From Moraxella nasovis (lineage in GTDB: Bacteria > Pseudomonadota > Gammaproteobacteria > Pseudomonadales > Moraxellaceae): a stretch of 32,000 nucleotides of DNA. How positions within the stretch are numbered: the first letter of the stretch is position 1; every line of letters begins with the position of its first letter. Under the pieces are notes generated by a model, which saw only the letters and a program-made list of their open reading frames with translations, had not been told where the DNA came from and made no database searches. The position numbers were made by a program, and so were the translations under genes. Positions 4,463-6,936 of this stretch are shown here, piece after piece. The stretch lies in the NCBI RefSeq assembly GCF_022701215.1, contig NZ_CP089976.1, positions 1,680,001 to 1,712,000 of the forward strand, in the 5' to 3' direction.

Positions 4463-4463
4463 T

Positions 4464-4484
4464 AAATTTGATAGTATCAAATTT
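4464..4484. promoter_or_regulatory. Perfect 21-bp palindrome between the carA stop and the Mrr-like gene
   Basis: AAATTTGATA-G-TATCAAATTT. It starts 2 nt after the carA stop codon and ends 5 nt before GTG 4490. No U-tract follows, so it looks like an operator or junction site rather than a terminator. Confidence 0.5.
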
Positions 4485-4489
4485 AAAGA

Positions 4490-5428
4490 GTGAGCTTAAT
4501 GATAATAAATAATCATAATCAATCACGAGTCTGGGTGCTTTGTTTAATGATGGACAACCAAGTTCGCACACGCCAAGACATCTATCAAGGCGTGATTGAT
4601 TTGGCAAAGATTAGTGATGATGAGATCGGCGATCAGATCTCATCAGGGCAAAGCCGTTTATTAAATTCTTTAGGTTGGGCAATTTCTAGTTTTGTTAAGG
4701 CGGGGGTTTTAAATCGCATTAGCCGGTCTATATATCAAGTTACGCCTTTGGGTTTAAAAATGGCGAAACAGTGGAAAGGCAAAGCTGAGATTACCGAAAA
4801 AGATTTTATCGGATTAAATGATTGGGATAATTATCAAAAAAATCTTTTAGAACGTAAAAAATCACAATCTTATAAGCATGTGAAATACTCTGAAAATCTT
4901 GACGGTCAAGAATTGGATTTTAAAATCCAAGCCAAAAATGCCATTAAAGAAATTGAAACAGAAATTGCTGTTGAATTACTAAATAAATTGCAACAAAGTA
5001 CGCCTTTATTTTTTGAAAAGGCAGTCTTAAAGCTGTTACTTGCGATGGGATATGGTGGTAAAGAAAATTTATTTGAGCATACGGGTAAATCGCATGATGG
5101 CGGTATTGATGGTGTGATTAAGCAAGACCCGCTAGGCATTCAAAATATCTATATTCAAGCCAAAAGATATGCCAGTAACAATACGGTCGGTTCAAAAGAG
5201 TTGCAATCTTTTTTAGGTGCTTTGCAGGGCAATGGGGTGGAAAGAGGCGTTTTTATTACCACGTCATCTTTTACCAAATCTGCCAAAGAATATGCACAAA
5301 AATTATTAGGTAAAATTGTCTTAATTGATGGTCAAGAACTGGTTACCTTAATGATTAAATACAAAGTTGGTATTCAAATAAAAGAAGTGCTTGAAATCTG
5401 TGAAATTGATGACGATTTCTTTGAGTAG
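4490..5428 (+). CDS. Mrr-like type IV restriction endonuclease (Mrr_N winged helix plus Mrr_cat PD-(D/E)xK). Start is GTG 4490 or ATG 4499.
   Basis: The N-terminus has SGQSRLLNSLGWAISSFVKAGVLNRISRSIYQVTPLG (Mrr_N pattern). The C-terminus has HDGGIDGVIKQDPLGIQNIYIQAKRY...GVFITTSSFTKSAKEYA (Asp and QxK nuclease core). AAGAG RBS lies before 4499. Confidence 0.85.
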   Translation: MSLMIINNHNQSRVWVLCLMMDNQVRTRQDIYQGVIDLAKISDDEIGDQISSGQSRLLNSLGWAISSFVKAGVLNRISRSIYQVTPLGLKMAKQWKGKAEITEKDFIGLNDWDNYQKNLLERKKSQSYKHVKYSENLDGQELDFKIQAKNAIKEIETEIAVELLNKLQQSTPLFFEKAVLKLLLAMGYGGKENLFEHTGKSHDGGIDGVIKQDPLGIQNIYIQAKRYASNNTVGSKELQSFLGALQGNGVERGVFITTSSFTKSAKEYAQKLLGKIVLIDGQELVTLMIKYKVGIQIKEVLEICEIDDDFFE

Positions 5429-5441
5429 GTGAGTAGCAATT

Positions 5442-6113
5442 GTGAGTGCAACGAAAGTAGAGTTATCTGACAAATTTAATCTCACCCTAGACCAAAACCG
5501 CTTTTTGGCTCGCAAAAATATCGTAGAAGTCATTCACAGTATTTCACGGTTAGAAAAGGTAAATACAACATTTCCCCAAACCAAAACCATCATTGATGGC
5601 ATGAGCGTGGGCGGAATTTCTACTCATGATATTCAAGTGGTGTTAAATCTTAAAAATGCGTGGCAGTTTATTTTAAAGTCAGACACGCCTTTTGATTTGG
5701 ATTTTGCTTGCAGGGTTAATGCTTTTGTTGCCTATAATGAAAGTTTAGCTTGGGGTGTTTTGCGGACTGGCAATGTCGGTATTAGTGGTGTTGGCTATGT
5801 GCCGAGCATTCCGATAAAATCAGATATTGAAAACACCCTTAATAAAATCCACAATTTGCCTTTATCCAAAACCGTGCTTATCATCAAAACGATGTATTAT
5901 ATGATGAGACAGCAGATTTTTTGGGACGGCAATAAGCGCACGGCGATTATTTGTGCGAATTATCAGCTGATTTTATCAGGGCTTGGCATTCTAAATATCA
6001 ATGAAAACCAGCTTGAAATTTGGAATAATCTATTGTCTGAGTTTTATGAAACGAATGATGATGACAAAATCATAGCTTGGACTTATGAACACTGTTTGTA
6101 TGGAATTGAATAG
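5442..6113 (+). CDS. Fic/Doc-fold protein with a degenerate active-site motif (catalytic His replaced by Gln)
   Basis: GVLRTGNVGISGVGYVPSIP matches the Fic pre-motif pattern G-x-R-x-x-V-x-I-x-G. The motif RQQIFWDGNKRTAIICANY (5913-5945) aligns to Fic/Doc HxFx(D/N)(G/A)N(G/K)R with Q at the His position. AGGTGAG RBS lies 7 nt before GTG 5442. Confidence 0.7.
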   Translation: MSATKVELSDKFNLTLDQNRFLARKNIVEVIHSISRLEKVNTTFPQTKTIIDGMSVGGISTHDIQVVLNLKNAWQFILKSDTPFDLDFACRVNAFVAYNESLAWGVLRTGNVGISGVGYVPSIPIKSDIENTLNKIHNLPLSKTVLIIKTMYYMMRQQIFWDGNKRTAIICANYQLILSGLGILNINENQLEIWNNLLSEFYETNDDDKIIAWTYEHCLYGIE

Positions 6114-6124
6114 GATAGTTTTAG

Positions 6125-6925
6125 ATGAGTAATATATTTTATTGTTTTGAATGTGATTATGCAAACCGCACGAAAGAAAAACCATTCTTAAAAGATATAT
6201 TGAATAATTTTACAAAAGATGAAATTGTGGGTTTTAACTTATATATTAACAATAACCCTTATAATAAACAATTTCATTTGGGTATATTTTTTGATAATGA
6301 CCAAGTAAGAGATAGATTTGATATTTGGTTGAAACAAAATCATCCTGATAGAATAATTAAATCTAATATGAAATTTCTTGATTTAGTTTTTCATGCCAAT
6401 GTTTGCGGTATTTGTGATGAAAATGGTATTGATTTGGCTATTACAAGCCATTCTAATCATATGTTTATTTTTCCAGAAAAAGATTTTCTAGAAAATCATC
6501 ACCCACAATTCGCATTTGTAAACAGAAATCAACCAAGAATTTTTTTAAGTCATTCGTCTTTGGATAAAGAAAGTGTTGTTGAGCCAATGTTTAGATATTT
6601 GCAAAGTCGTGAAATTCACGTATGGCTTGATAAATATGAAATTGATTATGGTGATAATATTTATTTCAAAATCAATGAAGGTATTAAAAATTCAGAATTT
6701 GCAATATTTGTAATTACTGAAAATTTTTTAAATAGCAAATGGGCAAATGAAGAATTGTCTTCATTTGTAAACTTAATATTTAATGATAAATGTCTTGTAA
6801 TTTTAAATATATCTGATAAATCAAATATTCCACCCATGATAATGGCTAGAAAATTCATGGAGTGGAATAATGGAGATTGCCTACTTGAAATTGCAAATGT
6901 TTTAAAAAGAAAACTTAACTTATAA
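6125..6925 (+). CDS. TIR-domain protein: C-terminal TIR (about aa 137-266, nt 6533-6925) fused to an unrecognised N-terminal domain with CFEC and CGIC motifs
   Basis: [78 protein letters not shown]. This shows the canonical TIR betaA (IFLSHS), W-D-x-x-E-I-x-x-G-D, and the SxWxxEL catalytic-Glu motif (E210, nt 6752-6754). The gene is very AT-rich. Confidence 0.85.
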
Positions 6926-6936
6926 GCGAGAAACTT

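Follow-up and report, generated by a model that had tools for sequence, protein, structure and literature searches.

Probably independent gene cassettes, among them predicted restriction and TIR genes, between carA and carB of Moraxella nasovis

Introduction

Minimal mobile elements (MMEs), in the definition of Saunders & Snyder (2002) and Snyder et al. (2007) as given in PMC3082526, are sites, best known from Neisseria, at which a conserved gene pair brackets whole-gene cassettes that differ across strains and species and are often restriction-modification (R-M) genes; the elements carry no mobility genes of their own, and the exchange of their contents is ascribed to homologous recombination in naturally competent bacteria. 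Defence genes are likewise carried in the hotspots of P2 and P4 elements (Rousset et al. 2022, PMC9122126). Here we describe a 2.47-kb insert between carA and carB, the genes for the two subunits of carbamoyl-phosphate synthetase (CPSase), in a 32,000-nucleotide stretch of Moraxella nasovis DNA (RefSeq contig NZ_CP089976.1, forward-strand positions 1,680,001 to 1,712,000), which we call the window. The insert encodes an Mrr-type restriction endonuclease, a Fic-fold protein with glutamine in place of the catalytic histidine (Gln-Fic) and a TIR protein with a rare N-terminal domain (N-domain-TIR). In our assessment it is probably a stack of three independently mobile single-gene cassettes in an MME-type hotspot, and a defence-enriched cassette hotspot of this known, MME-like kind is the best fit to the locus.

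The interval shares with the Neisseria MMEs its conserved flanking genes, which enclose at least 14 cassette arrangements, and the lack of mobility genes, and the Neisseriaceae contigs in our comparison are also variable between carA and carB. Unlike the described MMEs, the site splits two subunits of one enzyme within one transcription unit, extends to Moraxella and Lonepinella, and holds a Gln-Fic cassette and one TIR gene that are common to several families. The P2/P4 hotspots resemble it in offering a fixed slot between conserved genes for interchangeable defence cassettes, and the same N-domain-TIR gene occurs in P2-type and P4-like elements; the carA-carB slot, however, is chromosomal, lies between metabolic genes and accommodates non-defence cargo too. 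Lawson and colleagues reportedly noted a large variable carA-carB intergenic region in Neisseria in 1995. In the accessible literature we did not find carA-carB treated as an MME, or the region described in Moraxella or Lonepinella.

Results

Three intact genes between carA and carB

An earlier reading of the window, made from the sequence only, had carA and carB split by three ORFs on the same strand, and the list of open reading frames (ORFs) agrees with it exactly (Table 1). The proteins tested all match NCBI entries of M. nasovis with 100% identity. Mrr, Fic, TIR and carB are separated successively by 13, 11 and 11 nt, all on the + strand, and reading the sequence directly gave the same gaps as before. 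Since each of the three ORFs aligns over its full length to intact homologues, they are real genes and not chance ORFs. Mrr more likely starts at the ATG at 4499, behind an AAAGAG Shine-Dalgarno sequence, because its homologues begin MVINNHNQ. The domain identities proposed earlier (Mrr_N plus Mrr_cat, Fic, and a C-terminal TIR) were all upheld by Pfam, and the residues singled out then, D207 and K225 of Mrr and E210 of the TIR protein, are present.

The GC content amounts to 25.5% in the TIR gene, 35.3% in Mrr and 37.4% in Fic, as compared with 45.5% in carA and 45.3% in carB, values close to the hand counts of the earlier reading. At third codon positions (GC3) the insert genes stand at 17%, 31% and 39%, respectively, and the seventeen other long ORFs of the window average 43.3 ± 2.5% GC and 38.7 ± 4.2% GC3. 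The Fic gene is thus host-like in GC3, and the TIR gene is strongly AT-rich, with a foreign composition that, together with an empty site in M. cuniculi (below), bears out the horizontal acquisition suggested at the outset. Scanning the + strand from 4462 to 6937 revealed no terminator-like site, and the first convincing one after carA is the hairpin 3' of carB; the three genes therefore lie inside the carA-carB transcription unit and would be expressed by read-through, probably co-transcribed with carA and carB. A promoter scan was uninformative (24 found, 23.6 expected).

The carA-carB interval as a site of cassette exchange

About 130 related loci were compared overall, starting from each insert gene in turn, and carA homologues were used to reach Moraxella species without Fic. 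Across Moraxella, Lonepinella and Neisseriaceae, the carA-carB interval was found in at least 14 arrangements, the empty one included. The full Mrr-Fic-TIR order recurs beyond the window only in an unclassified Moraxella (L001 of our locus set, with the short contigs L002 and L003) and in M. caprae (L009), in which the TIR copy is frameshifted and Mrr and Fic are intact. The site is empty in M. cuniculi, where 266 bp separate carA from carB. M. nasicaprae, whose carA is the closest and whose outer synteny is the same, carries a Tsp45I-type endonuclease and an N6/N4 methylase; a gene without recognised family and an ankyrin-repeat gene occupy the interval in M. nasibovis, PhzF in the M. osloensis-group strain DOX410, and Fic with a 109-aa ORF, without Mrr, in M. 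caviae. Mrr and Fic alone lie between carA and carB in one Moraxella locus (L013), are followed by an ICMT gene in M. lincolnii (L014), and by ICMT plus a complete type II R-M pair (MTase_II 1.8e-119, REase_II 3.4e-76) in M. nonliquefaciens (L012). In other Moraxella loci Fic is flanked by PhzF, secreted proteins and proteins without assigned function. Two metagenome-assembled genomes (MAGs) of Moraxella (L010 8676-10225 and L040 8653-10235) have, after Fic, a PtuA-like AAA ATPase (PADLOC PtuA 1.3e-32) and then a PIN protein; the PIN-domain protein replaces the usual PtuB HNH nuclease of Septu, and this cassette may be a Septu-like variant.

The slot 3' of Fic in Moraxella is thus interchangeable, holding TIR, a type II R-M pair, the PtuA-like ATPase with PIN, ICMT or nothing, and the cargo of the carA-carB interval as a whole also includes non-defence genes (PhzF, LysE, ICMT, ankyrin and lipoprotein genes). 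Tabulating the locus in relatives, as had been proposed, accordingly yielded both empty and occupied sites; the triad as a recurring occupant outside its clade did not emerge. No integrase or transposase domain was detected in the window insert or in the annotated slot genes of other loci.

DNA homology between species (about 70-79%) ends at the carA stop codon and resumes at the carB start or a few nucleotides upstream of it, and carB itself is 76-79% identical at the nucleotide level to that of other Moraxella. Whichever cassette comes last, an A/G-rich block directly precedes the carB ATG in the loci compared, of the AGAGAGACC type in most loci and GCGAGAAACTT in the window. In M. nonliquefaciens CCUG 348 (L012), an exact 60-bp direct repeat (9241-9300 and 11498-11557), made up of 13 nt of the carB leader and the first 47 nt of carB, flanks the type II R-M cassette, and the otherwise identical M. 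lincolnii locus has a single copy of the 60-bp stretch and no R-M cassette. Such a duplication is what a single crossover with a donor bearing the 5' end of carB would leave. From the upstream copy, a truncated carB frame opens and continues into unrelated sequence.

Two other footprints of turnover are a gene remnant and pseudogenes. M. nasibovis (L097 8848-8997) retains a Gln-Fic remnant comprising the first 49 codons, with 87% nucleotide identity to window positions 5469-5603, which ends just before the ankyrin-repeat gene; the genome is without an intact Fic. Among the loci compared, Fic, Mrr and TIR are frameshifted independently of each other.

An ordinary type IV restriction enzyme

Pfam recognises Mrr_N (2e-13) and Mrr_cat (3.7e-36) in the first insert gene, and the PADLOC mREase_IV model matches at 3e-60 over aa 29-312 of 312; NCBIfam gave no match. 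The core residues D207, Q223 and K225 are intact within 'DGGIDGV…IYIQAKRY' and align with the core of the modification-dependent enzyme AspBHI, to which the catalytic half aligns (4oc8, E 8e-4). In having Mrr_N and Mrr_cat, a D…QxK core, a full-length mREase_IV match and a standalone gene, the protein is like E. coli Mrr and type IV enzymes; it is, however, only moderately similar to the solved relatives, the AspBHI match being limited to the catalytic half. As far as its sequence tells, Mrr is an ordinary standalone type IV restriction enzyme, in which the winged helix of Mrr_N is predicted to recognise modified DNA that the PD-(D/E)xK nuclease (D207/Q223/K225) would then cut.

A TIR gene was present in none of the 28 metagenomic Mrr loci examined. 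Some of these have the order carA-Mrr-PhzF-carB without Fic (L189-191), and others have Mrr away from the car genes (L196-203). Where Mrr and Fic are adjacent, frameshifts or internal deletions have broken Fic alone (L192-194) or both genes (L204-207); the lesions are shared by several contigs of 400-550× coverage, and these are probably real pseudogenes. In these metagenomic Moraxella contigs, the downstream ICMT-like membrane gene is intact beside the decayed Fic or Mrr and Fic.

A Fic-fold family without the catalytic histidine

The Fic domain is detected by Pfam weakly, though above threshold (1.6e-6, 29.3 bits against a 24-bit cut-off), and the fold is seen by profile search and by Foldseek on an AlphaFold2 model (pLDDT 93.9), with matches to FICD (6i7k, E 6.6e-9, TM 0.77) and the Clostridioides difficile Fic protein (CdFic, TMq 0.77/TMt 0.75), so that the assignment made from the sequence stands. 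A phmmer search against the PDB returned TPR matches only, which were discarded as spurious. The motif reported earlier, with Gln for His, is present as Q158-I-F-W-D-G-N-K-R. In a profile alignment to FICD, E38 falls on the autoinhibitory E234, Q158 on the catalytic H363, K165 on G370 and I169 on R374. The glutamine at the position of the catalytic histidine is invariant in 18 homologues and near-invariant in 43, and the second arginine of the motif (GRxxR) is missing, being I169 in the window and I/L/V/M across the family. In Fic proteins this second arginine is the partner of the inhibitory glutamate and a γ-phosphate ligand. E38, located on the equivalent of the inhibitory helix, is invariant, Lys165 is Doc-like and the DGN(K)R anion hole is preserved. 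The whole set of features is fixed across phyla.

Gln-Fic therefore has in common with the class II Fic AMPylases (FICD/HYPE, C. difficile Fic) the whole Fic fold, the inhibitory-helix Glu and the DGN anion hole, and with the Doc kinase the Lys after Asn (HxFxD[AG]NKR in Doc), but differs from the former in having Gln for the catalytic His and a hydrophobic residue for the second Arg. Judged by these residues, it is unable to use the canonical histidine general base, and its activity would most likely be nucleotide or phospho-ligand binding through the intact anion hole, not AMPylation of a target. Neither Mrr nor TIR would need it.

Assignments to described systems did not hold. The Doc toxin of Phd/Doc was rejected: the histidine is missing, the upstream gene is Mrr and not a Phd-like antitoxin, no small partner is conserved in 75 loci, and the Doc model TIGR01550 reaches 18.5 bits, below its cut-off of 38.65. 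In PADLOC at E ≤ 0.1, no SoFic or other match was obtained save a spurious one to QueC, placing Gln-Fic outside the model of the single-gene SoFic defence. NCBIfam gave sub-threshold matches only for both Fic and TIR. A phage family without assigned function, phrog_11900, matches Gln-Fic at 1e-32. A homology search recovered 653 relatives, and a GTDB scan of one genome per species, whose returns did not include the window's own genome, placed Gln-Fic in 298 species. Our literature search found no description of His-to-Gln Fic proteins.

The five proteins of the window locus were searched with tblastn against 87 loci. In Lonepinella (Pasteurellaceae), Fic is the sole gene in the carA-carB interval, 6 and 18 nt from its neighbours, and in Alysiella (Neisseriaceae) it lies directly upstream of carB. 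In about 75 loci, belonging to Bacillaceae, Planococcaceae, Lactobacillaceae, Coriobacteriia, Saccharibacteria, Neisseria sicca, N. perflava and 18 viral contigs, the car, Mrr and TIR genes are all missing around Fic, and outside the clade with the triad TIR is absent from all Fic loci examined (about 90). All-against-all clustering of the Fic neighbours in 81 loci revealed no conserved partner outside lineage-specific synteny. The 150 immediate neighbours, searched with Pfam and PADLOC, are heterogeneous (118 Pfam families), a mixture of housekeeping genes and, in smaller number, integrases, resolvases and defence genes.

Two further associations were observed. A LysE-family exporter adjoins Gln-Fic beside carB in Alysiella crassa (L017 7330-7998) and Lonepinella koalarum (L018 8650-9285); the placement of an amino-acid exporter beside arginine-pathway genes could be meaningful or coincidental. 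In 15 MAGs of uncultured Bacilli/Tenericutes (L047-L071, L084), Gln-Fic lies in conserved housekeeping synteny, with a class II aminoacyl-tRNA synthetase 5' and an RNase HII-family gene, a CvpA-like protein and thioredoxin 3' of it, and nine of the 15 have a same-strand 160-aa ORF ending about 6 nt before Fic, which could be a lineage-specific partner of Gln-Fic.

A rare two-domain TIR family

The whole TIR gene (6125-6925) encodes 266 aa. Pfam places TIR_2 at aa 139-236 (2.4e-17), and W206 and E210 are invariant in 23 homologues. The closest structures to the TIR half in Foldseek are AbTir (7uxu), BtTir, BtpA/TcpB (4c7m) and PdTIR, and a profile comparison with AbTIR (8e-18) places E210 on the Glu of the AbTir 'WTNYEL', so that structure prediction, too, upheld the domain. 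The PADLOC candidate PDC-S66 matches at 4.8e-24 (profile positions about 145-250 of 282), and the ThsB models at 1.3e-14, both over the TIR half only; the PDC-S66 match is confined to that half in ten diverse members of the family as well. Residues 1-135, with a core predicted by AlphaFold2 as beta-alpha-beta-beta-alpha, gave no match in Pfam, PHROGs or PDB. A profile search run exhaustively over 1.84 billion representatives retrieved only 82 clusters with this N-domain, nearly all 265-293 aa long or fragments, with TIR_2 in 42 of the 45 full-length members, indicative of one fixed two-domain architecture. A word search for the full-length protein found 25 relatives.

The window protein resembles PDC-S66 in having its TIR domain at about residues 140-240 of a protein of about 270-280 aa, and AbTir-type NADases and ThsB in its conserved catalytic Glu and WxxxE context, yet its N-terminal 135 residues do not match PDC-S66 and its family is rare. 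By these comparisons, the N-domain-TIR family is a sister of PDC-S66 and not a member; PDC-S66 itself was found only in survey papers in our literature search. Unlike ThsB of Thoeris, the protein is without a ThsA partner. Thoeris was rejected, no ThsA (SIR2, Macro or SLOG) being found in the interval, among the window families listed or beside the TIR gene elsewhere, as were CBASS, Pycsar, SPARTA and Avs, with no cyclase, Argonaute or STAND NTPase in the insert or among those families; the list comprises 25 of the 34 Pfam families of the other 20 window ORFs, all housekeeping. The earlier statement that such partners are lacking agrees with this.

The gene also occurs apart from the other two. 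In Neisseria sp. oral taxon 020 a 16-nt gap separates it from the downstream carB; Fic and Mrr are absent, and no carA lies within 6 kb upstream, so that carA and carB are far apart; directly 5' of it are a 77-aa ORF and a PIN-domain gene (L088 5121-5753), a VapBC-like pair. In a set of metagenomic contigs TIR again abuts carB and is separated from carA by 4 kb of further variable genes, with neither Fic nor Mrr. The Pseudomonas sp. R1-1 copy resides in a P2-like prophage, with the gpD/gpU tail genes on one side and Ogr on the other. Full-length relatives without Fic are encoded on six viral contigs. On one of them the neighbours are baseplate J/V, a Dcm methylase, an HNH protein and a PAAR-Ntox44 toxin; another has the gene in a P4-like region that includes a Toprim primase, Ogr/Delta and a TacA antitoxin; on two the gene adjoins large serine recombinases, and on one, from a Firmicutes phage, it lies upstream of terminase. 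About 0.9 kb downstream of the gene in the Firmicutes phage contig (L122 7729-8939, minus strand) is an opposite-strand pair: one product (145 aa) starts with a TIR-like 'YDYRLFISHAW', and the other (177 aa) appears membrane-associated by eye. This pair could represent a further TIR-based module of the phage.

The window TIR shares 57% identity with the Neisseria copy and 54-56% with the copies of the other Moraxella triads, and the same triad loci are 78-79% identical to the window in Fic and 83-86% in carB. With TIR as close to Neisseria as to Moraxella, and Fic and carB much closer, either allele replacement at the slot or very fast evolution is suggested. Carriage in P2-type and P4-like elements rich in anti-phage cargo makes a defence role the most likely one, and, as with other single-protein TIR defence candidates, the family is found in cargo regions of prophages and satellites. 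N-domain-TIR is thus most likely a self-contained single-protein module of putative defence or abortive infection, in which the rare N-domain would sense infection or restrain the TIR domain, and the AbTir-like TIR would then cleave NAD+ via E210.

Other features of the window

Table 1. Position and supporting evidence of features at the carA-carB locus of the window
Feature	Position	Strand	Evidence
carA, CPSase small subunit, left flank	3257-4462	+	Pfam CPSase_sm_chain 5.8e-50, GATase 5.1e-54
Mrr-type type IV (modification-dependent) restriction endonuclease (predicted)	4490-5428, 312 aa	+	Pfam, PADLOC, GC 35.3%
Gln-Fic, class-II-like Fic-fold protein	5442-6113, 223 aa	+	Pfam Fic, AlphaFold2, Foldseek
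N-terminal domain of the TIR protein, aa 1-~135, presumed sensor/regulatory part	6125-6529	+	no Pfam/PHROG/PDB match
TIR domain, AbTir/BtpA/PdTIR-like NADase type (predicted)	6530-6925	+	TIR_2, PADLOC, Foldseek, W206 and E210
TIR-carB junction with carB ribosome-binding region, right edge of the cassette stack	6926-6936	+	purine block
carB, CPSase large subunit, right flank	6937-10164	+	Pfam CPSase_L_D2 7e-113 and others
Strong terminator-like hairpin 3' of carB	10182-10215	+	15-pair stem and T-run

The leader 5' of carA (3001-3256) is very AT-rich (27% GC) and contains a 12-pair hairpin with a T-run at 3183-3211, about 45 nt before the carA start, which matched no Rfam family and could be an attenuator-type regulatory element for carAB. 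Rfam identified three tRNAs in the window and nothing more: tRNA-Leu(tag) at 1724-1808, upstream of a TerC/DUF475 gene, and a tRNA-Val(tac)/tRNA-Asp(gtc) pair at 18346-18525. The remainder of the window consists of housekeeping genes, such as those for MetRS, LptD, SurA, cytochrome bc1, ribosomal proteins L13 and S9, SspB and GreA; an ORF resembling YadA-anchor autotransporters is also present.

Discussion

Each of the three insert genes is found without the other two, the genes decay independently and their compositions differ, and we therefore favour separate cassettes. These would be gained, replaced and lost probably by homologous or homology-facilitated recombination, with carA at its conserved 3′ end and carB at its conserved 5′ end supplying the arms. 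The host genera in Moraxella, Lonepinella and Neisseriaceae are naturally competent, which makes natural transformation the probable route of exchange. Given its host-like GC3 and its remnants in other species, Gln-Fic appears to be the oldest resident of the site.

Several points weigh against this account. Phage defence by any of the three genes is a prediction, and separability is compatible with synergy when the genes are together. Mrr and Fic are adjacent in many Moraxella loci, with gaps of 0-13 nt, which may reflect a functional pair as opposed to shared ancestry, and the presence of Fic between carA and carB in three bacterial families is odd for random cargo. The proposed recombination draws on one duplication footprint and on flank conservation; flank identity across families (about 70% at the nucleotide level) is low for classical homologous recombination, and a repeat search of the window insert gave short chance matches only and no insertion scar.

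The sequence-only reading had favoured one cooperative three-gene defence system of new architecture, with TIR as effector or signal generator and Gln-Fic and Mrr as sensor, regulator or second effector. The tight same-strand packing, with gaps of 11-13 nt, speaks for it, as do the same order in two other Moraxella genomes and two metagenomic contigs and the fact that PADLOC, run on the three proteins as that reading had advised, assigns no multi-gene system. Yet the triad is limited to one small Moraxella clade at one locus, each gene is found many times without the others, the M. caprae TIR is frameshifted beside intact Mrr and Fic, unrelated cassettes fill the TIR slot in sister loci, and the genes differ sharply in composition. 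Co-occurrence in unrelated genomes had been made the touchstone in advance, and the three genes were never found together outside this lineage. Such a system appears largely refuted by the comparative data, and we consider it highly improbable. The fallback offered at the time, an independent Mrr beside a two-gene Fic-TIR module, comes closer but is not upheld either: Fic occurs without TIR and TIR without Fic. That Mrr and Gln-Fic form a two-gene unit in Moraxella, with Fic modulating Mrr or the two making an addiction-like pair and TIR an add-on, strikes us as improbable. Mrr is directly 5' of Fic in the window, in L001, where the ORFs touch or overlap, in L009, L012, L013 and L014 and in about 14 metagenomic loci, but Fic dispenses with Mrr in M. 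caviae, four MAGs, Lonepinella, Alysiella and all car-less loci, Mrr dispenses with Fic beside PhzF and in the loci elsewhere, Fic pseudogenes lie beside intact Mrr or both are decayed, and outside Moraxella Mrr_cat is not a recurrent Fic neighbour.

Two further readings attach a host function to single genes, and both are unlikely. Gln-Fic could be an accessory or regulatory subunit tied to CPSase, beside which defence genes landed, as suggested by its position between carA and carB in Moraxella and Lonepinella and directly 5' of carB in Alysiella, the short Lonepinella gaps, its host-like GC3 and the LysE-type exporters that flank it in two genera. No car gene lies within 8 kb in more than 85% of the loci examined, however, no arginine or pyrimidine gene recurs next to Fic, many Moraxella are without it, it decays to pseudogenes and remnants with carAB intact, and relatives occur in phage contigs, which leaves a functional link to CPSase very unlikely. 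That the TIR protein is directed at the host, serving mucosal bacteria as a Tcp-like virulence or immune-evasion factor and not against phages, is suggested by the structural matches to BtpA/TcpB and PdTIR and by carriers, Moraxella and Neisseria, that colonise animal mucosa. This, too, we consider very unlikely: full-length relatives reside in a Pseudomonas P2-like prophage, a P4-like satellite, serine-recombinase elements and a Firmicutes phage, settings known for anti-phage cargo (PMC9122126), one carrier is a soil bacterium, the TIR half is closest to the PDC-S66 candidate and the ThsB models, and the N-terminal sequence, inspected by eye without a signal-peptide predictor, has no obvious secretion signal. 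A bolder possibility, unlikely in our estimate, is that a rewired Gln-Fic serves as a hub or regulator for the flanking Moraxella defence cassettes, or as a standalone immune or stress sensor, and that, separately, N-domain-TIR is a new single-protein abortive-infection system with a sensor domain not seen before.

The reading of the insert as three independent cassettes removes a false lead, in that tight packing in an operon resembled a three-gene system and comparative genomics resolved it into separate units. The carA-carB gap emerges as a cassette-exchange site common to Moraxella, Lonepinella and Neisseriaceae, that is, to three families of naturally competent mucosal bacteria, and, with its duplication footprint, offers a tractable model for the movement of defence genes without mobile-element machinery. 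N-domain-TIR and Gln-Fic are two under-studied single-gene families. The former, rare, fixed in architecture and carried in P2-type, P4-like and recombinase elements, makes a good candidate for single-gene defence, and the latter, with about 300 species, raises the biochemical question of what a Fic fold does without its general base.

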